Positions 5,776 through 56,328 of a stretch of DNA of 64,000 nt are shown here, one piece after another. Every line of letters starts with the position of its first letter. Position 1 is the stretch's first letter. Position numbers and translations under genes: made by a program. The stretch comes from Candidatus Taylorbacteria bacterium RIFCSPLOWO2_12_FULL_43_20. GTDB taxonomy: Bacteria; Patescibacteriota; Minisyncoccia; Phycocordibacterales; HO2-43-120. The stretch covers positions 11,801 to 75,800 of the forward strand of contig MHSK01000006.1 in the NCBI GenBank assembly GCA_001821295.1, read 5' to 3'. Under the pieces are notes generated by a model. The model was given only the letters and a program-made list of their open reading frames with translations. It did not search any database and had not been told where the DNA came from.

Positions 5776-5858
5776 CTATTTCATTCAACATTGAAGATAA
5801 GGGCCCGTATCTGCTCACAGAGCCGAGTAATCCGCCAACTGTAACACTTTTTTCTTCT

Positions 5859-5935
5859 GTCATTCCCGCAAAGGCGGGAATCCAGATTCAAATGCTTGCT
5901 AGATTCCCGCCTTCGCGGGAATGACACCCCTCAGA
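5859..5935. repeat. Long palindrome: two 24-nt arms gtcattcccgcaaaggcgggaatc/gattcccgccttcgcgggaatgac, 1 mismatch, 29-nt spacer
   Basis: Seen directly. Lies 85 bp downstream of the dnaE stop. Each arm has its own sub-hairpin cccgcaaaggcggg. Confidence 0.8.
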
Positions 5936-8279: not shown

Positions 8280-8314
8280 ACAAGAAACAATCGGTAATCG
8301 GCATATTTTCTCCC

Positions 8315-8345
8315 AAGAATGTCAACGCTTAGCGTTGACATTCTT
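8315..8345. promoter_or_regulatory. 31-bp palindrome, family F copy 1: aagaatgtcaacgc-tta-gcgttgacattctt
   Basis: Perfect 14-nt arms. Copies at 8604-8634 and 9942-9972. Confidence 0.7.
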
Positions 8346-8603
8346 CATTTACAAAAAAGCCAGATTGCATGAATCTGGCGTAACGAAAGAACAAGGTTGG
8401 GTGCAAGGTACTTCCTGGATAGTAGATGCTGAGCATTTCAGAAAAGCCCCCTGCCCCAACCAAAAATATTTGGTCGGCCAAGCGGAATGCTGCGATTTAG
8501 AGAATGGTTCCCCCTTTTCATTCCGCCCAGCCAAAAACAATGATAATTCATATTCCCCTGTTTGCAAAGTTGACAATCCGCATGATATATTTTCTACCTT
8601 ACC

Positions 8604-8634
8604 AAGAATGTCAACACTAAGTGTTGACATTCTT
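8604..8634. promoter_or_regulatory. Palindrome F copy 2, overlapping the uvrC stop codon
   Basis: aagaatgtcaacac-taa-gtgttgacattctt. Confidence 0.7.
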
Positions 8635-9905
8635 TACTTGATGATTTTTCTCATCTTTCGGTGATATTTGATGGCAAAACGATGCGCCTCACTGTTGACT
8701 ATTAAAATCTCTTTCTTAAAATTTCGAGCCAGATTTTCATTGCCAAGTATTTTTAACGGCTTATGCCTGTCATTTTTGACGACGGAAAACACCTCGGCGT
8801 TAATCCCTTTATTTTTTATAACGCGTAAAGCGGTATTTCTTTGCGCCACCCCTCCGTCCACCACGACAACATCCGGGAAAGGCCATTCGTTGTGGCCGAA
8901 TCGCCTCAGAAGCGTCTCCTCTAGCGCCGCGGTGTCATCGGGGCCTTTTTGACGGCGTATCTTGAACAGCCGGTAATCCGATTTTTTTACATGCTTATCC
9001 TCCATGACTACCATTACCCCTCCCATGTCGCGTCCGGCCATGTGAGCCACGTCATATCCTTCCATCCTAAATATCCGAGTATCCTTTCTTTCTTGCCTCT
9101 GGCCGGCGCCAGCTAGATCGTCATCATGCTTGATCAAAGAAATATCCTGAACGTGCTCCAGAGCAAAAATTGTCCTTTTGACACTCTCCGCTTTTTCAAA
9201 TTCCTGATTTTTTGCGTAATTTCGCATATCTTGGCAAAGTGAGCGTAACAATATGTTTTTTTTGCCTTCAAAAAATAATCTAATATTTCTGATAATTTTA
9301 GCATAGTCGCGCTTGTTTATTTCTCCCGTGCAAACTCCAGGGCACAGGCCGATCTGCCTGTTGAAACAAGGCCGGCTACTCTTGGAATACGTTCCCGACT
9401 TTTCGCTTACCGGCACGCATTTATCCCTGAAAGTAAATATTTTTCTTATAATTCTCATGCCTTCTCTGAGCACGGCGCCTTGCGTATAAGGTCCGAAAAT
9501 GTGTTTGATTTTATAACCGGGATTGCCGCTTTCAAGATCTTTGCCGCGTACGGTAAGAATCCTAGGGAAATCCTCGTCAGTAAACGCGACATACGAGAAG
9601 CTCTTATCGTCTTTGTCGGCTGTATTCGCATTTGGATAATATTTTTTTATCAGATTTGATTCCAGTATGACGGCCTCCAGAACAGAATCTGTCTGAATAT
9701 GTTCGACTCTGTCGGCCTCTTCAACCATACGCGCCACAATCGGCCCGCGAGTAATAGCGAGATCGTTTGAAAAATAACTGGAAACTCGGTCCATTAGAGA
9801 AGTTGCTCTGCCGATATAAAGAACATCGTCCCCTTTTTTGAAGAAGTAAATTCCCGGCGCGTCGGGAAGATCTTTTTTATTGAAATTTTTCATGATAGTC
9901 AGCAT
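8634..9905 (-). CDS. uvrC: Excinuclease ABC subunit C, short form (GIY-YIG plus RNase-H-like endonuclease domain; no C-terminal HhH)
   Basis: GIYFFKKGDDVLYIGRATSLMDRVSSYF (GIY-YIG) and MEGYDVAHMAG motifs. 423 aa versus about 600 for canonical UvrC. Confidence 0.8.
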   Translation of the reverse strand: MLTIMKNFNKKDLPDAPGIYFFKKGDDVLYIGRATSLMDRVSSYFSNDLAITRGPIVARMVEEADRVEHIQTDSVLEAVILESNLIKKYYPNANTADKDDKSFSYVAFTDEDFPRILTVRGKDLESGNPGYKIKHIFGPYTQGAVLREGMRIIRKIFTFRDKCVPVSEKSGTYSKSSRPCFNRQIGLCPGVCTGEINKRDYAKIIRNIRLFFEGKKNILLRSLCQDMRNYAKNQEFEKAESVKRTIFALEHVQDISLIKHDDDLAGAGQRQERKDTRIFRMEGYDVAHMAGRDMGGVMVVMEDKHVKKSDYRLFKIRRQKGPDDTAALEETLLRRFGHNEWPFPDVVVVDGGVAQRNTALRVIKNKGINAEVFSVVKNDRHKPLKILGNENLARNFKKEILIVNSEAHRFAIKYHRKMRKIIK

Positions 9906-9941
9906 ATATTAACTCATATCCTCCGTCTCATCAAAACATCC

Positions 9942-9972
9942 AAGAATGTCAACACTTAGTGTTGACATTCTT
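9942..9972. promoter_or_regulatory. Palindrome F copy 3 (arms extend to 18 nt) 37-67 bp upstream of the uvrC start
   Basis: atccaagaatgtcaacac-tta-gtgttgacattcttggat. A candidate -35/-10 pair TTGATG-17-TAATAT lies between it and the start codon on the minus strand. Confidence 0.6.
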
Positions 9973-10027
9973 GGATATAAAAAAACGGATGACCATGTAA
10001 TATGGCATCCGCTTCAATCAACTTAAA

Positions 10028-10360
10028 GAACAAAATTTGTTGCGGTGGAGTACCCGTCCAAGGAGGGGGGCTTATTTTGGACTGGTGGGATACTCCACCG
10101 CTTGGCCTGAATGTTCAGTACAGGCCATAAGCCGAGGGGGGGGGACTGGACCCCTCGGAAATTGACGGTGAAGCGCCTTGTCAGAATGGTCACCTAGACA
10201 GAGCCGAGGAGGCGCTTCACCGCTTTTGGAGGGGTTGCCTCCAAACCACGAAAAGGTGGGAATTTTCGTGGAAAGCGCGGCAGGAACGTCGGATGACTCA
10301 TCGCGAAACGTGTACCAACGCCCCGCCGGTTTGGCTTCCGTGAACTCTCAAAACACGGGA
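10028..10360. other. GC-rich, highly structured non-coding segment (candidate structured ncRNA of unknown class)
   Basis: Local GC is clearly above its surroundings. Multiple nested perfect stems are present: gcggtggagta...tactccaccgc, ggcctgaatgttcagtacaggcc, ccgagggg...cccctcgg, ggtgaagcgcc...ggcgcttcacc, ttggagg-ggttgc-cctccaa, ccacgaaaa...ttttcgtgg. Only a non-protein-like 124-aa ORF overlaps it. Confidence 0.45.
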
Positions 10361-10557
10361 ACCAAAATCAAAACCTTATATATATTATACGGGCATTTGG
10401 ATTTGTCAATAGATGGACTAGTAACATCTCACACCCTGGTGGCTGTCATTTCCGCGCTGTGCCTTGTCGTAGCCTTGTGCGAAGACAGGAAGGCGAGAGT
10501 CCGGCAAGTATTTTGTTTTCTAGCTAAATTCTGCTTCTCTATCAACTATTGACTATT

Positions 10558-13236
10558 TCATTTCAGTGCCCGTCTCAGATATTCGGCCGTATGACTCGTC
10601 TTTGTAGCAACCTCTTCCGGCAGTCCCTTAGCCACTATTTTCCCTCCGCTTTCTCCCCCGTCAGGGCCAATATCAATAATGTAGTCGGCATTTTTGACGA
10701 TATCTATATTATGCTCTATGACCAATACGGTATTTCCCCTGTCCACCAGCTTGTGTAAAATCTCTATGAGCTTTTTCACATCTTCATAGTGCAGTCCTAT
10801 TGACGGTTCATCCAACAGATATATTGTTTTCTCCACATGGGGCCTGTATAGCTCGGAAGAAATTTTCACCCTTTGGGCCTCACCTCCGGATAACGTAGTG
10901 GCAGACTGGCCGAGCTCCAGATATCCCAAGCCGACATCATTGAGAGTCTTCATCCGATCATATATAGCCGGTATGTCTTCAAAAAAATCTAACGCTTCTT
11001 CAACGGTCATTTTGAGCACGTCATAAATATTTTTTTTCTTATATTTTACTTCAAGAGTTTCCTTCATAAATCTTTTTCCTCCGCAAATATCACACGGCAC
11101 GTAAACGGTCGGGAGAAAATGCATTTCAACAGCGATTTCGCCATTACCCTGGCACGCCTCACATCTCCCGCCTTTGATGTTAAAAGAAAACCGATTGGCC
11201 CTCCATCCGCGAATTCTCGCTTCTTCACTGGACGCGAAAAGATCCCTTATATGGCCAAACGCGCCTGTGTATGTGGCCGGGTTGGATCTCGGCGTACGGC
11301 CTATCGGAGCTTGATCAATGAGCACTGCCCTTCCCAAATATTCCGTACCAGAAAAAGAGGAGCAATTGAAAATCTCATTGGATCTGTATTTCCGGAGTAG
11401 CCGCGCCTGAAGATTCTTATATACTATCTCGTACATGAATGACGACTTGCCTGAGCCAGAAACACCGGTAATGATTACCAGTTTGCCGAGAGGAATATCC
11501 ACGTCCATTTTTTTTATGTTAAATATGTTTGCGTTGCGTATCATTATCTTGCCCGCCTCAGACGTTCTTCTCAAGGTGGGAACGCCGACACTTTCCTCCC
11601 CTCTCAAATATTTAAGAGTCAAAGATTCCTTTTCGGATGACTTATTTTTTTCTTTACGCGAACCATTATTCTCAAGCAAATCCTCCAAATATCCACTCGC
11701 TACTATCTTTCCGCCATGAACTCCCGCTCCGGGCCCGATATCCACCAAATAATCGGAAGAAAAAATAGTGTCTTCATCGTGTTCCACAACAATAATGGTA
11801 TTACCCAAATCCCTGAGTCGGAGTAAGGTCTTTATAAGCCGATCATTATCTTTTGGATGTAATCCTATAGTCGGTTCATCCAAAACATAAAGCGCGCCTA
11901 CAAGTCCGGAGCCGAGCTGGGATGCCAAGCGTATTCTCTGAGACTCGCCTCCGGACAATGTGTGCGCTCTACGATCCAACGATAAGTATTCAATACCCAC
12001 ATTAATCATGAATGTCAAACGAGATTCAATTTCCTTTATTATCACTTTTGATATATTTCTTTCTTTTTCCGATATCTTGAGTGATCCGAAAAAATCGCGA
12101 CAATCAGCGATGGACATATTGGTGGTTTCAACGATGTTTTTGCCTTGTATAACAACACCAAGAGCTTCATCTCTAAGCCGCGCCCCATGGCATCGAGGAC
12201 ATTTCTCATTTCCAAAGAAATGACGCGTACCTAGCCCGTTGCATTCCGAGCAGGCGCCGTATGGCGAATTGAATGAAAATAGTCTAGGTTCAATCTCGGG
12301 ATAGGAAAAGCCGTCATAAGGACACATGAATTTTGACGATATTAAATGCTCATCATACTTACCCGCGTCGGAACCATCCGAATGACCCGGTAGTTCCAGT
12401 TTGAGCAACCCGCCCGTCTCCGCCAGGGCGCGCTCTATCGCCTCGCTCAAACGTTCACGCCAATCCTCTTTAACCTCAGAGTTCTTCCGCTTATCGGAAG
12501 CTGTCTCAAACTCGCTTATAAAAAACTCATCAACCAGTACATCAATATCATGCTTTTTATTTTTTGATAAAATTATCTGCTCCCTCAGTTTTTTTCTCGA
12601 CCCGTCCACCTTTACCTCCGAGTAACCCTTGCCCAAAAGATCATAAAGAAGCTGATAATATTCCCCTTTTCGTCCCACCACGACAGGGGCATATATTCTG
12701 ATTTTTTCCGACTTAACGGGAACGCTCATTACTTTTTCGGACGGCAAAGTTCGCGTAACATGCTGGACTGTACGAACAATGGTATCCATGATTTCTTCGT
12801 GAGATAAACGCTTGATCTCCCTGCCGCATATCAAACAATGAGGATGTCCGACGCGCGCGAACAATATACGCAGATAATCATATATTTCGGTAATAGTCGC
12901 CACAGTTGATCGAGGATTGTTTGATCTTGACTTCTGATCAATAGAAATTGCCGGTGATAAACCCTCTATCTCATCCACGTCCGGCTTTTGCATGGTATTC
13001 AAAAACTGCCTCGCATATGCTGAAAGCGACTCCACGTAACGTCTCTGTCCTTCCGCGAATATCGTATCAAAAGCCAGGGAAGATTTTCCCGATCCGGACA
13101 AACCGGTAAAAACAATCATTTTATTTCTCGGCATCTCAACTGTAATATTTTTCAAATTATGGGTCCTGGCGCCACGCACAATAATCTTTTCCCCACTTTT
13201 GACTCCGCTATTTTTAATTTTTTCCTCCTTTTTCAT
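10558..13236 (-). CDS. uvrA: Excinuclease ABC subunit A
   Basis: 892 aa, tandem ABC ATPase domains (GLSGSGKSS Walker A twice), zinc-finger Cys clusters. Confidence 0.95.
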   Translation of the reverse strand: MKKEEKIKNSGVKSGEKIIVRGARTHNLKNITVEMPRNKMIVFTGLSGSGKSSLAFDTIFAEGQRRYVESLSAYARQFLNTMQKPDVDEIEGLSPAISIDQKSRSNNPRSTVATITEIYDYLRILFARVGHPHCLICGREIKRLSHEEIMDTIVRTVQHVTRTLPSEKVMSVPVKSEKIRIYAPVVVGRKGEYYQLLYDLLGKGYSEVKVDGSRKKLREQIILSKNKKHDIDVLVDEFFISEFETASDKRKNSEVKEDWRERLSEAIERALAETGGLLKLELPGHSDGSDAGKYDEHLISSKFMCPYDGFSYPEIEPRLFSFNSPYGACSECNGLGTRHFFGNEKCPRCHGARLRDEALGVVIQGKNIVETTNMSIADCRDFFGSLKISEKERNISKVIIKEIESRLTFMINVGIEYLSLDRRAHTLSGGESQRIRLASQLGSGLVGALYVLDEPTIGLHPKDNDRLIKTLLRLRDLGNTIIVVEHDEDTIFSSDYLVDIGPGAGVHGGKIVASGYLEDLLENNGSRKEKNKSSEKESLTLKYLRGEESVGVPTLRRTSEAGKIMIRNANIFNIKKMDVDIPLGKLVIITGVSGSGKSSFMYEIVYKNLQARLLRKYRSNEIFNCSSFSGTEYLGRAVLIDQAPIGRTPRSNPATYTGAFGHIRDLFASSEEARIRGWRANRFSFNIKGGRCEACQGNGEIAVEMHFLPTVYVPCDICGGKRFMKETLEVKYKKKNIYDVLKMTVEEALDFFEDIPAIYDRMKTLNDVGLGYLELGQSATTLSGGEAQRVKISSELYRPHVEKTIYLLDEPSIGLHYEDVKKLIEILHKLVDRGNTVLVIEHNIDIVKNADYIIDIGPDGGESGGKIVAKGLPEEVATKTSHTAEYLRRALK

Positions 13237-15368: not shown

Positions 15369-15377
15369 TGTTATATC

Positions 15378-15525
15378 GTGAATTACGAAACTCTTTTCTC
15401 AGCAGGGCTTTTGCGGAACACGGGTATTTTTTTGGTAAAAAATCCCTATGCAGAGCCCGTCGGCTTGCGCAATGTTCCGCAAAAGCCCTGCCTTCGACGA
15501 GTTTCGTAATACAAGGTGTTATACG
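15378..15525. repeat. Repeat family D: inverted pair (15378-15423 and 15473-15525), gtgttccgcaaaagccctgc-N-gagtttcgtaatac
   Basis: Two arms of about 40 bp in opposite orientation separated by about 50 bp. More copies at 37187-37235 and 56288-56328. Confidence 0.75.
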
Positions 15526-15541
15526 GTCATACCGATAATAT

Positions 15542-17944
15542 TTAATTGTCTTTTACCGGAAGCTCATCCCTTTCCTCCGGCTTATCATCCACAGGCGGCT
15601 TCGCGTTTTCAAAAGGCGGATTACCCGATCGCAAATTGGAAAGAATGAGAGCGACCTCTTCATTATCCTGGTTATATTTCTCAATTTCTTCAAACTCATT
15701 TATGGCGGCGGCATTGTCTCCGAGGTTGTAATAGCTTAAGCCGAGGAAATAGCGAGCGTTGGAATACTGTTCATTTATCGCGACAGCTCTCTGCATTGCC
15801 TCCTTTGATCCTTCATAGTCTTTATCGGCATATTTCAAAAAGCCGATTTGGAAATAGACAACCGGATCAGTAGGGTTGTAAAAAGCCACCGCTTCCACCG
15901 CTTGGATGGCGCCCTTTATATTCTCCTGGCTTATTTCAATCTGTGAAAGCAAGTATATCGCCTCTGTATAATTATTTTTTAACGCAAGTGATTGATTGAT
16001 ATACTCCCTTGCTTTAGGAATGTTTTCGTTAGCCGCTTCCAATCTGGCCAACTGAAGCACTATTGCCGGACTATGCGGGTTTAATTTTTGAGCTTCAAAA
16101 TAAGCGGACTGGGCATGCGGATAAGCATCCTTATACCCCAGTGAAAGAAGGGAACCGTAGATAGATCCCAAAGCCAAATGGTTTTGATAATTTTTTTTAC
16201 CCATGGAAACCGCCATTTTCGCGCTTTCTATCGTATTGGGAAGAAGCGCTTCAAACCGCGCGCGTGAAGCTTCAGGAGTGGATTCGGGATTGTTGATCGC
16301 GGCATTCATGTTGTAGATATATAACTGAGTCAAAACGCGATAGTATTCGTCGCTTTCATGAATTTTTAGCGCCCTTAAAATATAACTCAGAGCGACAACC
16401 GCGTCATTGTTATCAGTGACAGACCTTATTCCTTTTTCCACATAATAGGCGCTGATAATTCTTTTCCCCGAAATATATCCCAACGTCACACATCCGGTAA
16501 TAAGCACAACAAGAAGTAAAACGGTTACGAAACTTCTCTTGGGGTCCGCGCTGTACACTATATTTTTTCGTTCAATCAAACCGGCCTCCAAAAGAGAAGC
16601 TATAAACACTCCCGTAAAAATGAAAGCCAGAGAATACAATACCGTTGAAGGAACATATATGACAAAATAAACCCACAGATACAAGGCGGAGAAAAAAGAA
16701 GTTAAAATCATGTATCTCAACAGTTTATCTTTGGAAGAAAGGTTAAAAATTGATTTGAATCCTAGCCAAAGAAATGTGGCAATAAAGAAAATCCACGCAA
16801 TAGCTCCGACAAGACCCGTATTGATGATAAATGTGGGAATAAGACCGTAGCCGAAATTAAAATCCGTATTCCAAAAAATAGTATTGTTGACCCCCTCCGG
16901 CTTATGTGCAAGCCATTGTTTAACATATCCGTTGGGACCCACACCGAATACAGGGTCTGATTTAACGGTATGGTTGGCAATTTCAAAAGTACTCGTCCAT
17001 GAAGGACGCACCTCAATTTGCGATATGTTGAATTTCCGAGCGATGGAGTCGTTGATCTTCGCGCCGGCAAATATGAAAATCAGCGAAATTATTAGTACAG
17101 CGATTGAAAAAACAGGAATAATTCTAGCAGGTAAGGCCGGCTCTCCAGTCGTATTTACTTCCGTGACAGGGTCTCCAAAAGGGCTTTTTCTAAACGCAAA
17201 GATATAAATGCTTAAAAGTAAAGAGAATAACCCCACAATAATCCAAACGGAGTAAAAGTTTACAACTGTCAAAAACATCAAAGACACGGCCAGCATAACA
17301 ATGCCGAGCCATTTGAATATTCTGTTCTGCTTGAATGCTTCAATAGTTAACAAGGAAACAATGGCGATTAATCCGAAAAATATGCCAAGTTCGTTCCATT
17401 TGCCCACCAGATTAGCTGTGGCGCTGTTAAAAATTCCAAACGAAAGAAACTCCGGACCGATTATCAAGCGTAATATATGAAACAGAGCAAGGACGAAAAA
17501 TGACGCGAATAAGGATAAATAAAACCAAAATAATCTTTTTTTACCTTTGAGCAGATAAGAAGCTATGACAAGCACTATAGTCATAATCAATATGGAAGTG
17601 AAAGTCCCTATCTCGGCTCCTCTTCCGATTATAGAGTTAGTTACCGATCCTGAAAAAAGAGAGCTTACGATAAATACCAATGGCAATATCACGACAGACA
17701 AAGAGATCAAATGCTTCGGATAAGAAATAGTGCCGCTTTTTAATATAGCCAAAATGAGAAATATAAAACCAAGTAACACCAAAGCCGTCAATATAACGCT
17801 CTTGCCATAGACTAGAGACATACCCGGAATGAAAAAAATCGGTAGAAAAAAAACAGTTCCTAAAAAAAACACCAGGGATATTTTTTCCAAAATTAATTCG
17901 CTTGCTTTTGGCTGTTCTACGGTTGCAAATTCTTCATTTATCAT
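15542..17944 (-). CDS. Large polytopic membrane protein with O-antigen-ligase-like (Wzy_C-like) core and C-terminal TPR repeats
   Basis: 800 aa, more than 10 predicted TM helices, C-terminal TPR-like repeats (…AIYLLSQIEISQEN…YFQIGFLKYADKDYEGSKEAMQRA…YFLGLSYYNLGDN…). Confidence 0.5.
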   Translation of the reverse strand: MINEEFATVEQPKASELILEKISLVFFLGTVFFLPIFFIPGMSLVYGKSVILTALVLLGFIFLILAILKSGTISYPKHLISLSVVILPLVFIVSSLFSGSVTNSIIGRGAEIGTFTSILIMTIVLVIASYLLKGKKRLFWFYLSLFASFFVLALFHILRLIIGPEFLSFGIFNSATANLVGKWNELGIFFGLIAIVSLLTIEAFKQNRIFKWLGIVMLAVSLMFLTVVNFYSVWIIVGLFSLLLSIYIFAFRKSPFGDPVTEVNTTGEPALPARIIPVFSIAVLIISLIFIFAGAKINDSIARKFNISQIEVRPSWTSTFEIANHTVKSDPVFGVGPNGYVKQWLAHKPEGVNNTIFWNTDFNFGYGLIPTFIINTGLVGAIAWIFFIATFLWLGFKSIFNLSSKDKLLRYMILTSFFSALYLWVYFVIYVPSTVLYSLAFIFTGVFIASLLEAGLIERKNIVYSADPKRSFVTVLLLVVLITGCVTLGYISGKRIISAYYVEKGIRSVTDNNDAVVALSYILRALKIHESDEYYRVLTQLYIYNMNAAINNPESTPEASRARFEALLPNTIESAKMAVSMGKKNYQNHLALGSIYGSLLSLGYKDAYPHAQSAYFEAQKLNPHSPAIVLQLARLEAANENIPKAREYINQSLALKNNYTEAIYLLSQIEISQENIKGAIQAVEAVAFYNPTDPVVYFQIGFLKYADKDYEGSKEAMQRAVAINEQYSNARYFLGLSYYNLGDNAAAINEFEEIEKYNQDNEEVALILSNLRSGNPPFENAKPPVDDKPEERDELPVKDN

Positions 17945-17987
17945 ATTGTGAGTGGCTTATTCTTATAATTACTAATTGCCATCCTTT

Positions 17988-18107
17988 ATGACTTACGCAG
18001 TCGGCGCATTTCTTCGTTGCAAGCTCCGTTTGCTCCCGCAATGTATGAGCATACATTCTGGTCGCAATCCTCGCTTGCGCCTCGAACTGCATCAAAATTC
18101 GTAAGTC
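17988..18107 (-). mobile_element. MITE-like element family B copy 2 (inverted orientation)
   Basis: Reverse complement of 2367-2486 with a few substitutions. One terminal repeat is degenerate (aaattcgtaagtcc). Confidence 0.7.
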
Positions 18108-18175
18108 CTATCGTTAATAAATACATTATATATAATTCACGGTTCTCGGTACAGCTATTTCATCTACATATACCA

Positions 18176-18255
18176 TGGGTTTTCATCAATCTGCAAGCCA
18201 TAAATTCACAACATGCTATAGTACATTTCAACTTGTAACGGCACTAGCCATTAGA
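18176..18255 (-). repeat. Inverted repeat G, left copy, immediately downstream of ackA
   Basis: Reverse complement matches 21800-21872 over about 68 bp with 3 mismatches (agtgccgttacaagttRaaatgtactatagcatgttgtgaatttatggcttgcagattKatgaaaa). Confidence 0.85.
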
Positions 18256-18268
18256 TAGTGGACGGGCT

Positions 18269-19447
18269 CTAAAACAAACGTTCGCACTTTTTGGCAATCT
18301 CATCCATTTCATCCGAATAGACAACAGCGATCTTTACTTTACTGCGAGATGTATTTATAAACCGGCTGTAATCCGACTGTTTGACATTCTTTTCTTTATC
18401 AAGCTCGGCTCCCAACCACTGGAAATCCGAGGCGATTCGTTCCCTTATTATATCTGATCGCTCTCCCACTGTGCCTGAAAATATTATGGCGTCCAACCCT
18501 CCCAAAACCGCGGCGTAAGCGCCAACATACTTGCGTATTGAATAAACAAAAATATCAAGCGCTTTTTCCGCTTGTTTGTCACCTTCGCCTTGAAGACGGA
18601 TAAGATCCCGTATATCGGGGCTCGTGCCGCTTACGCCGAGAAGACCGCATTTACTGTTGAGATATGCTTCGCATTCATCAATACCCATTTCACGAGCGAG
18701 AACAAGTACCGCGCCAGCATCTATGTTACCGACTCGTGTAGCCATCGGTACTCCTTCAAGAGGAGTATATCCCATGGATGTATCTACACTCCGTGATTTT
18801 CTTACAGCTGTGACACTTGAGCCGCCTCCCAGATGACAAACCACCACCTTGTCCAAAGCGGAGCCGTTGAGTTCTGACGTTATTGAAACAGCGGAAGATA
18901 CAGACAAGCCATGAAAGCCGAATCTGCGCAAATCCAAATTATTCGTTTCTTCGGCGTTTATGGCATATACTTGGGCGACCTCATTCATATCCTGATGAAA
19001 CTCGCTGTCAGATACCGCCACGATAGGAACCGTCGGATAATCCCGTCTTAACATTTCAAGCTCTTTGAGTAGAGGGCTCAAATGCAATGGGACGAGCTTC
19101 GCGGCTTTATTCAGCTTATGGATATAATCTGAGTCAATTTTCACGCTTTTGGAAAAGAAAGTTCCCGGCGCAACCACCCGGACGCCAAAAGCGTCTATGT
19201 CTAGAGCCTCCTTGACGTGCCCCCGCATCTTAATTTCATGTAAAAATAAAGACAGGACGTTATCAAACCCGACATTGTTAAGCGTCCTTTGCTCTTTTCC
19301 TTTGTCACTTTGCAGTTCCAATAAAATTTTTTCTCCCTCATGTTCAAAATGAGCAAACAGCATTCTCCTGCCGTCTTCGTAAAAAGCGTATTTTTTGGAG
19401 GCACTGCCGATATTTACAATTAAAAATTTTTTCTTTTCCATTGCCAT
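18269..19447 (-). CDS. ackA: Acetate kinase
   Basis: VNIGSASKKYAFY, CHLGGGSSV, VDTSMGYTPLEGVPMATRVGNID motifs of the ASKHA acetate kinase family. 392 aa. Confidence 0.9.
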   Translation of the reverse strand: MAMEKKKFLIVNIGSASKKYAFYEDGRRMLFAHFEHEGEKILLELQSDKGKEQRTLNNVGFDNVLSLFLHEIKMRGHVKEALDIDAFGVRVVAPGTFFSKSVKIDSDYIHKLNKAAKLVPLHLSPLLKELEMLRRDYPTVPIVAVSDSEFHQDMNEVAQVYAINAEETNNLDLRRFGFHGLSVSSAVSITSELNGSALDKVVVCHLGGGSSVTAVRKSRSVDTSMGYTPLEGVPMATRVGNIDAGAVLVLAREMGIDECEAYLNSKCGLLGVSGTSPDIRDLIRLQGEGDKQAEKALDIFVYSIRKYVGAYAAVLGGLDAIIFSGTVGERSDIIRERIASDFQWLGAELDKEKNVKQSDYSRFINTSRSKVKIAVVYSDEMDEIAKKCERLF

Positions 19448-21771
19448 TGTTGAATTTCCGCCGGATCAACCCCATATTGTCTGATGTACGCGCCATGTTC
19501 GGAAATTTTATTCTTGTATACGTTAATAGCTTTATTGGCTCTCTCTCTGTCTAAAACTTTTTTTTCCACCATAGTTTCAAAAACCTCTATAGCCAAGTCA
19601 TATCTGCTTGTGCCATTCCTGATATGCATGTCAAACGGCGTCGTGGTAGATCCATTTTCCTCATAACCGTGCACAGAGAAACGATTCTGATCCCCTTCGT
19701 AGTCAAATAAAATCTGCTTCAGCGTCTGCGGATAGCCGTGAAAGTTGAAAATAACCGGCTTGTCATTAGTGAAATAGTTTTCAAAATCAGGGAGAGGAAC
19801 TCTGCAGGAATCATGGCCGAAGCCTAGCGCGGAAAGAGACAAAATATTGACAAATCTTGCTTTAACCTCGGGGGTTTCCGACTTCACGATATCAATCGCG
19901 GCCAAACATTCTTTTGTAAGATAATCACCGACGCCGCATAAAACAATGTCGGGGTCTTTTTCGCTCGCGAAATCCCAAACCATAAGTCCAATTTTCAATT
20001 CTTTGGCGGCAAGCTCCATATTAAGCCACCTCGGCTCCAGTGTTTTACCCGCCACTATTATATTTATTGAATTTTTTGAAGACAAACATTTTTCAAGCGT
20101 CAAGAGCGCGCTGTTGCCGCAAGCGGGAAAATAGACATTTACTAAACATCCCTGTTTCTGGAGCATATCGTCCACGAACCCCGGATTCTGATGGGAAAAA
20201 CCGTTATGTTCCTGTCTCCAGCCGGAGGATGTTAAAATATAGTTCAACGAGGGTATATCTCCTCTCCACTTAACCTCATGGGACTGTTTCAAAAACTTGG
20301 CATATTGATCGGCCATACTCGCTACGATCTGAATGAAGGCCTCATATGAAGCGAAAACCGCATGGCGTCCGGTAAGAACATAGCCCTGCATTATTCCCTG
20401 AAGATTATGCTCGGAAAGCATTTCCATAACTCTTCCGTTTACGCTTAAATCTCTATCCTCTTTCACGATAGGCATGGAGAAAGCTCTGGCGGTTGCCTTA
20501 AAAACCTCATCCAATTTATTGGAATAAGTTTCGTCCGGAGACATCATTCTAAAATTTCTATTCGGTTTGTTTAACTCAAAAACGTCTTTAAGATAAGCCC
20601 CGGCCCTTCTCATGCTGCTTGAACCAATAACGCCGGGAAAATCAACATCCTCAGCATAAATATTGACCTCAGGTAATTTAAGCGGTTGGTACGCTTTAGG
20701 ACCCCCCATACTGTAACACGAGTCACCAATCCTATATTCGGCGGAAGGCAGACAACTCTTTATACTCTCCTCAAAACCACCTTTATTATCAAACAGCTCA
20801 GAAAATCCATATGACCTCAGCCATGATTCAACTTCCCTAAGTTCCTCTGGATCTGACTTCGCGTTGGGAGCAACAACTTGATGAGATAAGAAATTACCCT
20901 CTATTTTATTGCCATGCAATTTTTTTATTCCGGTCCAACCTTTCGGAGTCTTAAGGATTATCATGGGAAACACCGCGGGAAGCGTGATCCGTCCTCTTCT
21001 CGCCTTATCTTGTATATCTCTTATTGCTTTGTAACTTTTCTCCACCGCCTTATTCATTCGCTTGTAAACATCTTCCCCCTCCACAATTATAGGATCGTAA
21101 CCATATCCTTGAAACAAAGAAATCAGGCTTTTGTTTGACATCCTGCCGAATATCGTAGGGCCGGATATCTTATATCCATTTAAATGAAGTATAGGCAAAA
21201 CCGCGCCGTCTTCCGCGGGATTTATAAGTTTATTTATGTGCCATGAAGCGGCCAAAGGCCCCGTCTCCGCCTCCCCGTCGCCAATGAGACAAGCGACGAC
21301 CAGCTCCGGACGGTCGAGCGCCGCGCCGTAAGCCGTGGAAAGAGAATACCCGAGCTCGCCGCCCTCCAAAATGACTCCGGGGGCTCCCGGACTCGCGTGG
21401 CTCGGAAATCCATAAGGCCAGCTAAAATTACGCGCCAGATATGCAATACCTTTCTCATCAAGCGTAGCTTCGGGATAATATTTTGATAATGTTCCCTCCA
21501 AAAAAAGATTGGCTTGGAGAGCGGGGAAACCGTGCCCCGGTCCCAGCACGAACATCATCCTTGCGTTGTGTTTTTTTGACAGTGCGTTAAGGTGCGCGTA
21601 TACAAAATTTATACCCGGACAAGTGCCCCAATGACCCAGTAGTCTGGGCTTAATGTGAGAGGACGCAAGGGGTTTATTCAGGAGATAATTATCCTGAAGG
21701 TAGATTTGTACAGCCGAAATATAGTTAGCGGCACGAACGTATTTTTTTATATTTTCTATGTTGCCAATCAT
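19420..21771 (-). CDS. xfp: Xylulose-5-phosphate/fructose-6-phosphate phosphoketolase
   Basis: 783 aa. GHWGTCPG signature, TPP-binding GDGE motif. Overlaps ackA by 28 nt (operon). Confidence 0.92.
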   Translation of the reverse strand: MIGNIENIKKYVRAANYISAVQIYLQDNYLLNKPLASSHIKPRLLGHWGTCPGINFVYAHLNALSKKHNARMMFVLGPGHGFPALQANLFLEGTLSKYYPEATLDEKGIAYLARNFSWPYGFPSHASPGAPGVILEGGELGYSLSTAYGAALDRPELVVACLIGDGEAETGPLAASWHINKLINPAEDGAVLPILHLNGYKISGPTIFGRMSNKSLISLFQGYGYDPIIVEGEDVYKRMNKAVEKSYKAIRDIQDKARRGRITLPAVFPMIILKTPKGWTGIKKLHGNKIEGNFLSHQVVAPNAKSDPEELREVESWLRSYGFSELFDNKGGFEESIKSCLPSAEYRIGDSCYSMGGPKAYQPLKLPEVNIYAEDVDFPGVIGSSSMRRAGAYLKDVFELNKPNRNFRMMSPDETYSNKLDEVFKATARAFSMPIVKEDRDLSVNGRVMEMLSEHNLQGIMQGYVLTGRHAVFASYEAFIQIVASMADQYAKFLKQSHEVKWRGDIPSLNYILTSSGWRQEHNGFSHQNPGFVDDMLQKQGCLVNVYFPACGNSALLTLEKCLSSKNSINIIVAGKTLEPRWLNMELAAKELKIGLMVWDFASEKDPDIVLCGVGDYLTKECLAAIDIVKSETPEVKARFVNILSLSALGFGHDSCRVPLPDFENYFTNDKPVIFNFHGYPQTLKQILFDYEGDQNRFSVHGYEENGSTTTPFDMHIRNGTSRYDLAIEVFETMVEKKVLDRERANKAINVYKNKISEHGAYIRQYGVDPAEIQQWQWKRKNF

Positions 21772-21799: not shown

Positions 21800-21872
21800 A
21801 CCAGTGCCGTTACAAGTTAAAATGTACTATAGCATGTTGTGAATTTATGGCTTGCAGATTTATGAAAATCCA
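21800..21872 (+). repeat. Inverted repeat G, right copy, immediately upstream of xfp. A partial inverted partner aacttgtaacggtactag lies at 21893-21910.
   Basis: See 18176-18255. Confidence 0.85.
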
Positions 21873-21948
21873 TGGTGCATGCAGAGAAAATTAACTTGTA
21901 ACGGTACTAGTAACCACGAAATTCGAAGCGAAACTCAAAAAACAGTAT

Positions 21949-24609: not shown

Positions 24610-25821
24610 ATGAATACCAACGTGAACAGTCAAGACGCCGGAAGTTTAGTGGGCAAAGCCGTGGATGTGAGACCGGTCTCCGAAGTAGAGAATCCGGAAG
24701 AGTTAATCATGAACTGCATGCCGGCATTCGGCGGCGCGTTCGTAAGAAAGATATTCTGCATTCTGGACCGAGTGATCACCGAGAATGTGCCTCTTGTGGT
24801 CGCCATTTCCGGGCCCATCACCGCCTCCAATCAGCATCGGGCCTGGCTCCTCCCTCTGATAGAGGAGGGCTACATCTCGTACATTACAACAACAGATGCG
24901 GCTTGTTATCATGACGGGCACTTCGGCCTTCAGGAAGAAAATCCCGTGCGTGAAGTGGACATTGAAGGCCGAGACCTTGAGTACGGCAAAGCCGGAGTCA
25001 TTCGCATTGGCAATGTCGGGTTTGACGAAAACGTTCTCTACAAGCAGGACAAATTCATATCTAATCTTTTGCAGAAACCCGAGTTCCAGCGCAAGATGAG
25101 CGGAACCGAATTCCGCAACCTGTTGGGCCAACATTATGACCGGCAAGAAGGTAGGCTCGGCATCAAGCCCGGCCTCCTCTCAACATGTTACAAGTATGGA
25201 GTGCCGGTATTCGTCGGGGCGCCGTGCGACGGCTCTGTCTACTTAAACCACGTAAAGCTTTGGGCTATGCGAGAAAATGGCGTGCTTCGGCACGACTTTG
25301 AGCTAGACATTGAGCGCGAAGTTTTTGAAAGCGCCGCTATTCATTACTGGGGATTGACGAGATCGCCAGCAAAGAAGCTTGCGATCCTCATACTCGGAGG
25401 AGGAGTGCCGAAGAACTTCTCACTTCAGCCGGAGCCGTTTCTATCTCAAATACTTTTGCTTAACGACATCGACGGTTACAGCTTTGATGTCCAGATCGTG
25501 AGCACTAACGTTACTTACGGATGTCTCACAAGCTGTAAGCCAGCCGAGGCCCACACGTGGGGAAAGGTCAGCGCTGAGGCCCTGGGTGGTACAACCGAGA
25601 GTCTCGAAGCAGACTACTCAACAATCATGCCCCTCATTTCTTGGGCCATAATTGATAAAAAACACCGACTCTTTAACCGTGACGCGAGTGAGCCGGGGGT
25701 CCGAGGATATTGTCTGCGAAATCACCTCCGACTGTACGACAAGTTGCCGGAGTTGACCAAGCACCTTCTGGATCGGATCACTGAATTAGATCACGTTGTC
25801 AAGCTCAAATCCGCTTTTTGA
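24610..25821 (+). CDS. Deoxyhypusine synthase family protein (DHS-like / homospermidine-synthase-like)
   Basis: Colinear with eukaryotic/archaeal DHS: VPVFVGAPCDGS (cf. IPVFSPALTDGS), ILILGGGVPKN (cf. IILGGGVVKH), and a C-terminal block ending in WGK (cf. human EAVSWGK). GC is clearly higher than in flanking genes. Confidence 0.75.
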   Translation: MNTNVNSQDAGSLVGKAVDVRPVSEVENPEELIMNCMPAFGGAFVRKIFCILDRVITENVPLVVAISGPITASNQHRAWLLPLIEEGYISYITTTDAACYHDGHFGLQEENPVREVDIEGRDLEYGKAGVIRIGNVGFDENVLYKQDKFISNLLQKPEFQRKMSGTEFRNLLGQHYDRQEGRLGIKPGLLSTCYKYGVPVFVGAPCDGSVYLNHVKLWAMRENGVLRHDFELDIEREVFESAAIHYWGLTRSPAKKLAILILGGGVPKNFSLQPEPFLSQILLLNDIDGYSFDVQIVSTNVTYGCLTSCKPAEAHTWGKVSAEALGGTTESLEADYSTIMPLISWAIIDKKHRLFNRDASEPGVRGYCLRNHLRLYDKLPELTKHLLDRITELDHVVKLKSAF

Positions 25822-29310: not shown

Positions 29311-30609
29311 TTAAAACGATGCTGCTCCTATGTCTTTCCGATAATGTGCCCCTTTGAAATGGATGCACTCTACCCCTTGGTAAGCGCGGTCAATAGCTTC
29401 CCGAAGCGTATCGCCGATCGCGGAAACACCGAGCACGCGACCGCCGGATGTGATAAGGTTTCCGTCCACTTCCTTTGTCCCCGCATGAAAGACGACAACT
29501 CCTGGCAGAGATTCAGCTTTATCAATGCCTGTGATAGTCAAACCTCTTTTGTGGTCTGGATCCGGATAACCTTCCGATGCCATGACGACGCAAGCCGCGT
29601 AGCCACGATGCCACTCGATGTCCAACTCCTTTAGCCGACCCTCAACGCACGCCTCTAAAATATCCAAGAGATCAGTTTCCAGAAGCCGCATGTAAACTTG
29701 CGCCTCCGGATCGCCAAAACGGGCGTTAAACTCAAGAACAGTTAGTCCGGCTTTAGGCATTTTGAGCCCAGGATAAAGAACGCCTGTAAACGGCGCGCCC
29801 TCCTCCTTGAGACCGAAAAGAGCTGGGGCAATCACGTCTTTGTGGACAGTGTAATATAGACTAAATTTCGGAACCGGAGCAATCGTTCCCATCCCACCTG
29901 TGTTTGGACCTTTATCTCCGTCCAGTAACCGCTTGTGGTCTCGCGCCGAGGGAAACAGCTTGTGCGTCTTACCATCCGAGATGGCGTGCATAGAAACCTC
30001 AGGTCCGTCCACGAAGTTTTCGATGACAACCTCATCGCCGGCAATGCCGTGCGTTCGCAACAACATAATCTTTCTAAGAGATGAAGCGGCTTCATCAAAA
30101 TCTCCACACGGGTAAACTCCTTTGCCAAGAGCAAGCCCCGATGCTTTGATTACTTTTCCGAGATTGCTTGACCCGAAGTGCCGGCGTACATGTTCTAACG
30201 CCCTTTCGTGTTTAGTGAACACCTCAAACCTTGAAGTCGGTATTCCATACTTCGCCATGAACCGCTTTGAAAAAGCTTTTGACGACTCGATCCGTGCCGC
30301 ATCCCTTGTGGGGCCGAAGATTTTCAGACGGTTCGCCTGAAAAACGTCAACGATAGCCAGTGCCAGCGGATCATCTTGCCCGACGATTGTAAGGTCAATC
30401 CCTTTCCTGAGCGCAAACTTGAGAAGTCCCTCAATATCCGTGGCGCTAATCGGAACATTTTCCGCGATCTGCGCTGTACCGGCATTACCTGGCGCAACGT
30501 AGAGTTTTCCAAGACGCGGTGACTGACGGAGCTTCCAGGCAATCGCGCATTCGCGTCCACCTCCTCCGACGAGTAGTGTTTCGAGTAGTGTTTTTTTATG
30601 CATGTGCAT
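29311..30609 (-). CDS. purD: Phosphoribosylamine--glycine ligase (GAR synthetase). Start set at the ATG giving MHMHKK…; the track's TTG start is 48 nt upstream.
   Basis: LVGGGGRECAIAWKL N-terminal motif and ATP-grasp core. Gene GC is clearly higher than in flanking genes. Confidence 0.85.
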   Translation of the reverse strand: MHMHKKTLLETLLVGGGGRECAIAWKLRQSPRLGKLYVAPGNAGTAQIAENVPISATDIEGLLKFALRKGIDLTIVGQDDPLALAIVDVFQANRLKIFGPTRDAARIESSKAFSKRFMAKYGIPTSRFEVFTKHERALEHVRRHFGSSNLGKVIKASGLALGKGVYPCGDFDEAASSLRKIMLLRTHGIAGDEVVIENFVDGPEVSMHAISDGKTHKLFPSARDHKRLLDGDKGPNTGGMGTIAPVPKFSLYYTVHKDVIAPALFGLKEEGAPFTGVLYPGLKMPKAGLTVLEFNARFGDPEAQVYMRLLETDLLDILEACVEGRLKELDIEWHRGYAACVVMASEGYPDPDHKRGLTITGIDKAESLPGVVVFHAGTKEVDGNLITSGGRVLGVSAIGDTLREAIDRAYQGVECIHFKGAHYRKDIGAASF

Positions 30610-30756
30610 GACTGTAGCCCTTCCTTCTTTCGTTAGATTTATTTGTCTATTTGCCAATTGCCAAACAACTGAACTCTACCGTCATACTACCAAATGTTTA
30701 AAAGAAAACCAAATGGCTTTCTCTTAACACAATTTGACTGCTGTAGTACTGTAAAT

Positions 30757-33231: not shown

Positions 33232-33464
33232 TTTTTAATGTGTAATAAAATTATTATATCATCATTTTCGTTACTGCCGGCCAGGGACCATGAATACATT
33301 TCTCTCCCTCGACTCTCGTCGTGCCGTCGCACTCCTCGGTCTGGGCACCAGCTCGTCTGTTTTTTCTACTGAAAAAACATGACTCCGCTGTTCTCGTCCC
33401 TACGCGAGTGAAGCAGTTCACTCGCTGGCCGGCAGCAAAGCCTTTCGCTTCGCTCATTGCTTTA

Positions 33465-33535
33465 CTGCCGGCCAGGGACTCGAACCCCAATACCCGCCTC
33501 CAAAGGGCGGTGTCCTACCATTAGACGAGCCGGCA
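33465..33535 (-). tRNA. tRNA-Gln (anticodon UUG)
   Basis: Minus-strand sequence TGCCGGCTCGTCTAATGGTAGGACACCGCCCTTTGGAGGCGGGTATTGGGGTTCGAGTCCCTGGCCGGCA(G). Perfect 7-bp acceptor stem with U1:A72 and G73 as in bacterial tRNA-Gln. Anticodon stem CCGCC/GGCGG, loop CTTTGGA. Confidence 0.85.
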
Positions 33536-33974: not shown

Positions 33975-34041
33975 CTGAGGGGTATTATTGTTAATTTTAT
34001 TATATTTTTATAATTTTCAGCACCTCCCTCTATTCACTATA

Positions 34042-34161
34042 GGACTTAGGCAGTAAGATGCAGTTCGAGGCGCGAGCGAGGATTGCGACCAAAATGTATG
34101 CTTATACATAGCGGGAGTAAACGGAGCTTGCAGAGAAGAAATGCGCCGGATGCGTAAGTCC
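34042..34161 (+). mobile_element. MITE-like element family B copy 3
   Basis: ggacttaggcagt…gatgcgtaagtcc, about 90% identical to 2367-2486. Confidence 0.7.
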
Positions 34162-34177
34162 TATACTATCCACTTTT

Positions 34178-36984: not shown

Positions 36985-37103
36985 CCAGCCAGCATACCAA
37001 AGATTTGCAAATATTTCCTATTGAATTTTGAATTGCGAAACTCGTCGCAGGCAGGGCTTTAATGGAAATTTCCAATATCTAATTACTAATTCCCAATGGA
37101 AGA

Positions 37104-37165
37104 TGGGACACCCCTTCGCCTCGGAAACCTCGGCACTTCCCCTCTAAAGAGGGGAAGATGGGGAG
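37104..37165. repeat. Repeat family A copy 2
   Basis: ccccttcgcctcggaaacctcggcacttcccctctaaagaggggaag. Confidence 0.8.
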
Positions 37166-37186
37166 GGTCTCTCCCGTCGACTAACA

Positions 37187-37235
37187 CAATGTTCCGCAAA
37201 AGCCCTGCCGAGAAAAGAGTTTCGTAATACACCGT
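37187..37235 (+). repeat. Repeat family D copy 3
   Basis: tgttccgcaaaagccctgccgagaaaagagtttcgtaatac. Confidence 0.75.
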
Positions 37236-37262
37236 ATTGAATTTTCTTTCGTCACGAGATTT

Positions 37263-46982: not shown

Positions 46983-47043
46983 CCCTCCCACGGTTCAAGT
47001 CCTTGAGGAGTTCACTCATCCGATTCGTGAGCCACCTCTCGGA
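46983..47043. repeat. 61-bp perfect direct repeat, distal copy (proximal copy 47134-47194 overlaps the tRNA-Thr 3' end)
   Basis: ccctcccacggttcaagtccttgaggagttcactcatccgattcgtgagccacctctcgga appears twice, separated by 90 bp carrying two small hairpins (ttgaaaacccaaggttttcaa and cggggaactcccgttccccg). Confidence 0.9.
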
Positions 47044-47180
47044 ATTTCACGTCGCTTTGCTCCTTGAAAACCCAAGGTTTTCAACGCTCGAAGACTCGCT
47101 CTTTCCTACACGGGGAACTCCCGTTCCCCGACCCCCTCCCACGGTTCAAGTCCTTGAGGAGTTCACTCATCCGATTCGTG

Positions 47181-47253
47181 AGCCACCTCTCGGACTTGAA
47201 CCGAGGACCCACGCTTTACAAAAGCGTTGCTCTACCAACTGAGCTAAGGTGGC
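47181..47253 (-). tRNA. tRNA-Thr (anticodon UGU)
   Basis: Minus-strand GCCACCTTAGCTCAGTTGGTAGAGCAACGCTTTTGTAAAGCGTGGGTCCTCGGTTCAAGTCCGAGAGGTGGCT. 7-bp acceptor stem, anticodon stem ACGCT/AGCGT, loop TTTGTAA, T-arm CTCGG-TTCAAGT-CCGAG. Confidence 0.88.
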
Positions 47254-52353: not shown

Positions 52354-52404
52354 ACATACATATTAAACCAGCCTCCGCTTGATTGCCAGAGGCATAGTAT
52401 TATA

Positions 52405-52490
52405 GAACTTACACAGTTGGATGCAGTTCGAGGCATGCCCGCAGGTCTCTCTAGTTCGTGTACTCTATTCGTTAAGCGGTATCTGCTTAT
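52405..52490 (+). repeat. Partial family B 5' end (52405-52434) followed by family C copy 6 (52453-52490)
   Basis: gaacttacacagttggatgcagttcgaggc then ctctattcgttaagcggtatctgc. Confidence 0.65.
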
Positions 52491-56065: not shown

Positions 56066-56280
56066 CTCTCTACCAGTTGGAATCTCTTCTGTCTTTTACC
56101 ATCAAATTCAACTTCCTCATCAAACATAAGCGCCGGCCTTACCCATATTTTGTTTTCCGATTCATACTGCGGCTCGTACACCACCATATCTTCCATCGTC
56201 TCGGAGTGTTTGGCAAGACAAATGATTTTGTACAATTTATGATTTTTGAAATGTTTATATATCCCCCCTATTTTTATCAT
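56062..56280 (-). CDS. DUF1653-family small protein
   Basis: YKHFKNHKLYKIICLAKHSETMEDMVVYEP…WVRPALMF pattern. Confidence 0.55.
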   Translation of the reverse strand: MIKIGGIYKHFKNHKLYKIICLAKHSETMEDMVVYEPQYESENKIWVRPALMFDEEVEFDGKRQKRFQLVES

Positions 56281-56287
56281 GATTTAT

Positions 56288-56328
56288 CGTGTATTACGAA
56301 ACTCTTTTCTCGGCGAGTTTCGTAATTC
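56288..56328. repeat. Repeat family D copy 4 (forms a hairpin attacgaaactc-N10-gagtttcgtaat)
   Basis: cgtgtattacgaaactcttttctcggcgagtttcgtaattc. Confidence 0.7.

Follow-up and report, generated by a model that had tools for sequence, protein, structure and literature searches.

A GC-rich chain of hairpins between uvrA and uvrC of a Candidatus Taylorbacteria genome as a candidate orphan small RNA

What is the GC-rich, densely folded DNA that separates uvrA from uvrC in Candidatus Taylorbacteria bacterium RIFCSPLOWO2_12_FULL_43_20, an uncultured organism from groundwater, and does it encode an RNA? The element lies in a stretch of 64,000 nucleotides (nt) of contig MHSK01000006.1 (assembly GCA_001821295.1), which was analyzed as a whole and is referred to here as the window. 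An earlier note, made from the letters of this stretch, had marked positions 10028-10360 as an unassigned structured segment and had offered three readings, namely a lineage-specific structured RNA, a riboswitch-like leader for the genes downstream on the minus strand, or a decayed mobile-element RNA. We take the element as 10028-10376, within the 652-nt spacer between the two genes. The reading we favor, with a probability of roughly 0.45, is that of an orphan, independently transcribed and trans-acting structured small RNA on the minus strand, specific to the species or genus. An RNA gene is plausible from its sequence signals, from which we infer transcription, strand, and mode of action.

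The composition of the element bears out the earlier description of a locally GC-rich segment. GC content in 200-nt windows reaches 0.58 at 10100-10299 against a mean of 0.427 for the window, and 10028-10376 is the GC-richest non-coding stretch in its vicinity. Raised GC content, here 0.58 in a background of 0.43, is likewise a feature of the tRNAs within the window. The fold is equally distinct. On the minus strand, 10028-10376 has a minimum free energy (MFE) of -158.3 kcal/mol, compared with -108.0 +/- 4.7 kcal/mol for dinucleotide shuffles (z = -10.7). None of 100 shuffles reaches the minus-strand MFE, and the centroid is the same as the MFE structure. A second computation on the minus-strand transcript gave z = -9.8, while the plus strand folds with z = -7.5. 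When the window was scanned with a sliding frame of 150 nt, the longest run of structure outliers was this element.

The fold consists of eight hairpins in series, H1 to H8, with 0-6 nt between neighbors and a weak terminal helix that loosely closes the chain. An inverted-repeat search recovered perfect stems of 7-13 bp in six of the eight, in agreement with the earlier count of at least six. In the order in which they would be transcribed, the hairpins are:

10330-10366, minus strand, H1: stems UUUGGUU/AGCCAAA and CCGUG/CACGG, loop UUUUGAGAGUU
10278-10328, minus strand, H2: stems CGGCGGGG/UCCUGCCG and CGUUGG/CCGACG, with G-U pairs, well formed on the minus strand only
10246-10271, minus strand, H3: perfect stem of 9 bp (10246-10254 with 10263-10271), loop UUCCCACC
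10225-10245, minus strand, H4: perfect stem of 8 bp, UUUGGAGG/CCUCCAAA (10225-10232 with 10238-10245), loop CAACC
10165-10223, minus strand, H5: stem of 14 bp (13 Watson-Crick pairs and one G-U), of which 13 bp are perfect (10166-10178 with 10210-10222, holding the pair ggtgaagcgcc/ggcgcttcacc), around a 31-nt interior with two short helices
10132-10158, minus strand, H6: perfect stem of 8 bp, CCGAGGGG/CCCCUCGG (10132-10139 with 10151-10158), loop UCCAGUCCCCC, part of a run of nine C
10103-10127, minus strand, H7: perfect stem of 7 bp (10103-10109 with 10121-10127), loop UACUGAACAUU
10042-10101, minus strand, H8: outer stem of 14 bp, CACCA bulge, inner stem of 6 bp and a 15-nt loop AAUAAGCCCCCCUCC; the perfect stem covers 11 bp (10042-10052 with 10091-10101) and extends to 19 nt at 84%

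The pair in H5 had been described as long-range. It is real, spans 13-14 bp and encloses further helices, but it closes a hairpin of 60 nt and so is not truly long-range. Outside the helices, the 131 unpaired positions of the minus strand (44 C, 42 U, 32 A, and 13 G) are pyrimidine-rich and G-poor, and three of the loops, UUCCCACC, UCCAGUCCCCC, and AAUAAGCCCCCCUCC, carry runs of C. A pseudoknot between AUAAGCC in the H8 loop and GGCUUAU in the linker of H6 and H7 is not claimed, because a 7-nt complementarity is within chance at this length.

Signals of the kind expected at the two ends of a transcription unit bracket the folded region. Read along the minus strand from uvrA to uvrC, the locus contains:

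10558-13236, minus strand, uvrA, from its open reading frame (ORF) and a Pfam scan
10410-10557, minus strand, an unstructured spacer of about 150 nt (z = -0.05) from the uvrA stop codon to the promoter, within the lineage-specific insertion and outside the folded RNA
10382-10409, minus strand, a sigma-70-like promoter: TTGACA (10409-10404), a 16-nt spacer and TAATAT (10387-10382), with 10 of 12 consensus matches
9979-10376, minus strand, the predicted transcript, a candidate non-coding RNA of about 398 nt made up of the structured body and the terminator
9979-10015, minus strand, an intrinsic terminator: stem-loop GAAGCGGAUGCCAU-AUUAC-AUGGUCAUCCGUUUU running into a U run (U7 at 9985-9979), -14.4 kcal/mol
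8634-9905, minus strand, a short UvrC-type gene of 423 amino acids, from its ORF and a Pfam scan

The promoter also contains an alternative -10 box, a perfect TATAAT at 10389-10384, which would leave a spacer of 14 nt. Only eight sites on both strands of the window score this well; among the others are one ahead of tRNA-Gln and some ahead of ORFs. Transcription is predicted to start at about 10376-10374. The promoter ends about 6 nt ahead of the first hairpin, and the structure begins no more than about 10 nt from the predicted start and stops at the terminator, which is of the same type as those behind uvrC and the ORFs at 24610-25821 and 29311-30657. On the plus strand of the element, neither a promoter nor a terminator was found. 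The pairing itself is asymmetric as well. The minus-strand fold contains 14 G-U pairs against 8 for the plus strand, the helices at 10278-10328 form on the minus strand only, and those that contain G-U pairs become C-A mismatches on the plus strand. Promoter, terminator, G-U pairing, and the boundaries of the structure together argue that the minus strand is the one transcribed. Because no terminator is predicted in the interval from the uvrA stop codon to the element, the element would also form the 3' untranslated region (UTR) of the uvrA mRNA.

The start signals of neighboring genes bear on how this layout is read. uvrC has its own promoter-like site, TTGATG-17-TAATAT, read from the sequence and ending at its ATG. 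A -10-like TAnnnT box lies 1-10 nt ahead of many start codons, for example those of uvrC, dnaE, and the gene for ribosomal protein L25, and a Shine-Dalgarno-like motif was seen in only 3 of 44 genes of the window. This suggests that mRNAs in this genome are mostly leaderless or nearly so.

Is the element instead part of a protein-coding gene? The earlier note had held it to be non-coding, and this is well supported. The sole sizeable ORF that overlaps it, at 10178-10552 on the plus strand, begins with TTG and would encode 124 amino acids. GenBank has a 'hypothetical protein' there (A3B98_04255 and equivalents), and the JGI record contains an odd call at the same ORF, with a 584-nt range and a product of 26 residues. 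The predicted protein has no Pfam match. Among 5.8 billion clustered proteins it matched nothing beyond its own cluster, and among 1.84 billion representative proteins it had no homolog but itself. Since it has neither homolog nor domain, the annotated gene is probably spurious. Its last 49 codons (10403-10552), which lie divergent to the RNA promoter, would give a hydrophobic stretch and then a basic patch (LVTSHTLVAVISALCLVVALCEDRKARVRQ...), superficially like a type I toxin. We dropped a type I toxin at about 10403-10552 on the plus strand, as a brief reading gave no convincing start signal and no homolog was found.

Nor is the element a product of assembly, since its sequence is identical in independent ENA, JGI, and NCBI assemblies. 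The 11 kb around it are 100% identical in Rifle aquifer assemblies labeled Candidatus Taylorbacteria, and the members of the UvrC cluster all come from the same genome, again with 100% identity across 11 kb. The sole population variant seen is a GT insertion in one assembly, at the stem-loop edge of H1. Among 185,579 species genomes, the best matches of UvrA are in Candidatus Taylorbacteria and metagenome-assembled genomes of Paceibacteria, at no more than 77% identity. A short UvrC of about 420 amino acids is the form found in Paceibacteria; its only Pfam matches are to the RNase H endonuclease domain of UvrC and, at a weak level, to the UVR motif.

We then ask whether the element belongs to a known RNA class. 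At gathering score, a search of the whole window with Rfam 15, as the earlier note had proposed, assigned no family to it. At E <= 10 on 9850-10620, there were chance matches only, for example to plant microRNA precursors on the neighboring palindrome. The best match to a regulatory RNA, CcsR1, the only such family to align even weakly, reached 20.6 bits where the gathering score is 65.3, so the element is not a member of that family, and L20_leader, at 19.5 bits against 58.7, is a sub-threshold chance match. RNase P RNA (types A/B and T) was not matched at gathering score or at E <= 10. Of its conserved regions CR-I (GGAAAGUCC) and CR-V (ACAGAANNCGGCUUA), only the fragments GGGGUCCAG and CGGCUUAU are present, 13 nt apart and with conserved A residues missing. 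For transfer-messenger RNA (tmRNA), ARAGORN reported none and no Rfam tmRNA model matched at E <= 10; the T-loop core (G)TTCRA gave no T-arm-like site in the folded body and a single match in the tail before the terminator. Neither signal recognition particle (SRP) RNA nor 6S RNA was matched in Rfam, and the fold is one of eight separate hairpins. Rfam, ARAGORN, and reading by eye thus all agree with the earlier observation that signatures of RNase P RNA, tmRNA, and SRP RNA are absent.

More specific candidates were compared as well. No aptamer family among the known riboswitch and leader classes matched, even at E <= 10; a terminator is present, and the alternative pairings found were only 7 nt long, which is at chance level. 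Intron-containing tRNA genes have recently been described in Patescibacteria (PMC13011429). ARAGORN with introns allowed gave none here at default settings and two malformed models at 80% thresholds, and no group I intron was matched, which excludes such a gene. The stem-loop arrays of TIGR-Tas systems occur in bacteria that belong to the Candidate Phyla Radiation (CPR) (PMC12045711). Pfam scans of 45 ORFs of the window (44 of the 48 with at least 150 amino acids, and one of 134) found no Nop-domain Tas protein. The geometry does not fit either: the loops of H3, H4, H6, and H7 measure 5-11 nt and the linkers 0-6 nt, leaving no room for two spacers of 8-12 nt with box C (CCA) and box D (UG) motifs at their sides. 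A sponge of the CsrB/Rsm type was rejected because GGA occurs in none of the eight hairpin loops of the minus strand, GGA and AGGA motifs being confined to the plus strand. Covariance models of 6C and RsaE gave no match at E <= 10. What the element does have, by its sequence signals, is the make-up of a stand-alone small RNA gene: a promoter and a terminator of its own on one strand, and no coding potential. It also has at least two loops with unpaired C runs together with an intrinsic terminator, a functional resemblance to small RNAs with C-rich loops.

How might such an RNA act? Transcription from its own sigma-70-type promoter, starting near 10376 and stopping at the terminator at 9979-10015, would yield an RNA of about 400 nt in the layout of a 3'-UTR-embedded small RNA with an internal promoter. 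The RNA would fold as a chain of eight independent and very stable hairpins and could act in trans through its exposed C/U-rich loops. These loops may pair with G- or purine-rich RNA segments, as in the 6C, RoxS/RsaE, and CcsR types. Alternatively, a protein with affinity for single-stranded, pyrimidine-rich RNA may use the chain as a multi-site scaffold. No complementary target stands out in the window, and Shine-Dalgarno sites are few; the partner could equally be such a pyrimidine-binding protein.

Several observations weigh against a functional RNA. We compared the locus with 80 uvrA loci of other Paceibacteria, comprising 1.03 Mb. uvrA and uvrC are adjacent in 70 of the 80, and the spacer is hypervariable, with lengths of 0 to 3800 nt. 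In at least five related loci and one further locus it contains a response-regulator gene in antisense, and other related spacers hold unrelated hairpins. Neither blastn nor nhmmer matched the element in any of the 80 loci, and covariance models built from the single sequence of each half recovered only the window itself from the 1.03 Mb. K-mers in common with related loci turned out to be antisense Shine-Dalgarno and ATG signals of unrelated genes and were discarded. Phage and plasmid collections gave no blastn match, and exact 18-19-mers of the element gave none in viral contigs. A homolog search in metagenomes had been proposed in the earlier note; an exact-oligomer scan of metagenome contigs returned 15 matches, all of them chance and without flanking similarity. 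In the closest relative (GCA_039934295.1; UvrC 60% identical), a gap of just 24 nt separates uvrA from uvrC and contains neither a promoter nor the element. Because that spacer is so short and no homologs were found, the element is a recent, lineage-specific insertion. No homolog was found outside the same genome in which compensatory base changes could be seen. The stems, nearly all perfect Watson-Crick and simply placed in series, are unusual for old functional RNAs and would fit young DNA palindromes. Searches for trans targets of the C-rich loops, in translation-initiation regions or anywhere in the window, gave none above chance, and the rarity of Shine-Dalgarno motifs removes the most obvious class of G-rich targets. 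Finally, palindromic repeats are abundant in this genome, which raises the prior for hairpin-rich DNA that has no RNA function. Taken together, a lineage-specific structured RNA remains the best-supported of the three earlier suggestions by virtue of its fold, the bracketing promoter and terminator, and the lack of an Rfam match, but conservation is absent as far as it can be tested.

The same observations sustain the main rival, hairpin-rich DNA that is neutral or selfish. The element would then be a palindromic, lineage-specific insertion (MITE/REP-like remnants, after miniature inverted-repeat transposable elements and repetitive extragenic palindromic sequences, or hairpins made by template switching) in a tolerant spacer, and its promoter- and terminator-like signals would be there by accident or act for uvrA and uvrC alone. 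The window has at least four other families of intergenic repeats that are palindromic or form a long hairpin, unique nested palindromes such as that at 5858-5926 are present too, and the perfect stems, the hypervariable spacer among 70 relatives, the nearest relative without the element, and the empty homolog searches are all as this explanation would have them. The true repeat families, however, recur three to four times and each form one long hairpin, whereas the element is single-copy in the window, where it matched only itself, and comprises eight different short hairpins. It has no convincing terminal inverted repeats at its edges. The boundaries of structure, promoter, and terminator coincide, the G-U-dependent helices and G-poor loops make the strands asymmetric, and the GC content is well above the genome mean. 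We regard inert hairpin DNA as rather unlikely, while giving it more weight than any other competitor. The suggestion of a decayed mobile-element RNA is neither borne out nor rejected: palindromic repeats in the genome and insertion relative to the closest relative speak for it, and the lack of similarity to phages, plasmids, or other copies speaks against it. Among the 45 ORFs scanned with Pfam, none encodes a reverse transcriptase, Cas protein, TnpB/IscB, transposase, or Nop-domain protein; most belong to ordinary cellular, housekeeping-type families, and a few match nothing.

A purely cis-acting role is improbable. The element would in that case be the 3' UTR of uvrA and a transcriptional insulator, which stabilizes the 3' end of the uvrA mRNA and terminates it, so that uvrC, co-transcribed with uvrA in relatives, would have its own, lower expression here, with no function in trans. 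The first terminator after uvrA is indeed the one at 9979-10015, uvrC has its own -35/-10-like site past it, and in the closest relative the two genes are only 24 nt apart with no promoter between them. But one terminator hairpin would be enough for this purpose, and some 330 nt of additional stable hairpins and a near-consensus internal promoter would go unexplained. Unrelated inserts, including the antisense response-regulator genes, separate the two genes in many relatives, and the content of the spacer thus seems not to be selected for one cis function.

A bolder version of the favored RNA gene is a long shot. Here, the element would found a new class of structured RNAs in Patescibacteria, large and transcribed independently. 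The hairpin chain of about 400 nt would be a recent acquisition between uvrA and uvrC, its C/U-rich loops making it a multi-site scaffold or decoy, perhaps of an RNA-binding protein or of nucleic acids from a host or symbiont, and relatives in other CPR genomes would be too diverged for the oligomer and BLAST searches made here.

Least probable of all is a cis-regulatory leader of uvrC, riboswitch or protein-dependent attenuator, with the promoter at 10409, a sensing domain, and the terminator at 9979-10015 as expression platform: promoter, structured domain, terminator, and gene do follow one another on one strand in the classic architecture, and two 7-nt complementarities between H5 and the terminator arms could pair alternatively, but these are at chance level, would have to break a 14-bp stem and provide no convincing antiterminator to the strong terminator at the end, no known aptamer or leader family matches, the closed perfect hairpins leave no obvious ligand pocket, relatives express uvrC without such a leader, and the promoter-like site of uvrC abuts its ATG, as befits a genome whose genes mostly appear leaderless, so that the element is not needed as a leader.

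If the favored RNA gene is real, what would it mean? Patescibacteria, or CPR bacteria, have tiny genomes, and almost nothing is known of their regulatory RNAs. An RNA gene of 400 nt would be an expensive feature in such a genome and would provide a concrete target for metatranscriptomics in the well-sampled Rifle aquifer community. If the element is inert hairpin DNA, a reduced genome tolerates, and actively accumulates, palindromic insertions at operon junctions, one of which has split an ancestral uvrA-uvrC unit. As an orphan of a single lineage, the element is of limited general importance until homologs or transcripts are shown.

The window contains other repeats and structured regions, which we describe here in their own right. 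One of them adjoins the candidate RNA:

9938-9976, a perfect palindrome of 19+19 bp directly after the terminator, adjacent to the RNA and probably outside it; it is one of the three copies, described next, of a 33-bp palindromic repeat around uvrC

A perfect palindrome of 31-33 bp, CCAAGAATGTCAACRCTWAGYGTTGACATTCTTGG, is present in exactly three copies in the 64 kb (8313-8345, 8602-8634, and 9940-9974), all within 1.7 kb. One follows the stop codon of thrS, another sits at that of uvrC, and the third is just upstream of the start of uvrC. In one of the three, G...C is replaced symmetrically by A...T, so that the palindrome stays intact. None of the 98 loci of other organisms contains the motif, which may serve a dimeric regulator of uvrC as operator, form a hairpin at mRNA ends, or be a REP-like element. 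The unique nested 28-bp palindrome at 5858-5926 follows closely on the stop codon of dnaE and has arms that each form a small hairpin of their own; in the closest relative, the spacer at this place measures only 92 nt.

Two dispersed families are intergenic. The first, of about 126-133 nt, has three full copies and one partial copy (2364-2489, 17986-18119, 34031-34163, and 52402-52434), with 87-94% identity, in both orientations and all between genes, each forming one long MITE-like hairpin. The second long-hairpin family is found at 15369-15545, 37028-37241, and 56280-56339, the copy at 15369-15545 folding with z = -10.8. The genes for acetate kinase and phosphoketolase (18269-21771) lie between the arms of an 89-nt inverted repeat (18157-18245 and 21803-21891, 91% complementary), and the GC-richest 150 nt of the window (0.69, 21257-21406) are inside the phosphoketolase gene. 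The two genes may have been transferred together as a cassette. The 3' end of tRNA-Thr is part of a direct repeat (46983-47046 and 47134-47197; 64 nt, 98% identical, 151 nt apart), as is that of tRNA-Gln (33266-33288 and 33457-33479; 23 nt, 91% identical); both repeats look like att-type scars or local duplications. Beside tRNA-Thr, 430 nt are highly structured (z = -7.2), with no Rfam match.

Lastly, we compared the element with known systems. MITE and REP repeats have in common with it perfect palindromes in an intergenic position, in a genome that carries such repeats; it differs in being single-copy in the window, with eight unrelated hairpins and no convincing terminal inverted repeats. 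TIGR arrays similarly present tandem, variable, palindromic stem-loops followed by a rho-independent terminator in a CPR genome. Unlike in TIGR-Tas systems, there is no Nop-domain Tas protein among the scanned ORFs, and the hairpins abut, four of them with loops of 5-11 nt. With OLE, ROOL, GOLLD, raiA, and HEARO, the element has in common the signature of a GC-rich, unusually large and stable non-coding element between genes of a low-GC genome. Those RNAs, however, are widely conserved, show covariation, and fold into nested multi-stem junctions, whereas the element is a linear series of hairpins without homologs or an Rfam match. CsrB/CsrC and RsmX/Y/Z also consist of many consecutive hairpins followed by a terminator, and CsrB is of similar length at about 350-400 nt, but the loop GGA motif of these sponges is absent from the transcribed strand, and no Rfam match links them to the element.

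In function, there may be a likeness to 6C RNA of actinobacteria, RoxS/RsaE of Firmicutes, and CcsR1-4 of Rhodobacter, with which the element would have in common its apparent own transcription, an intrinsic terminator, and C runs in loops. These RNAs are 60-120 nt long with 2-4 hairpins, compared with about 400 nt and eight hairpins here, and their usual targets, G-rich Shine-Dalgarno regions, are rare in the Taylorbacteria genome. In layout, the likeness is to small RNAs embedded in a 3' UTR and equipped with an internal promoter, for example MicL and DapZ, which are short and Hfq-dependent. The element bears no sequence relation to MicL or DapZ; like them, it lies immediately downstream of a protein gene of the same orientation, its predicted promoter lies just past the stop codon, and the only terminator of the gene would be common to both transcripts.

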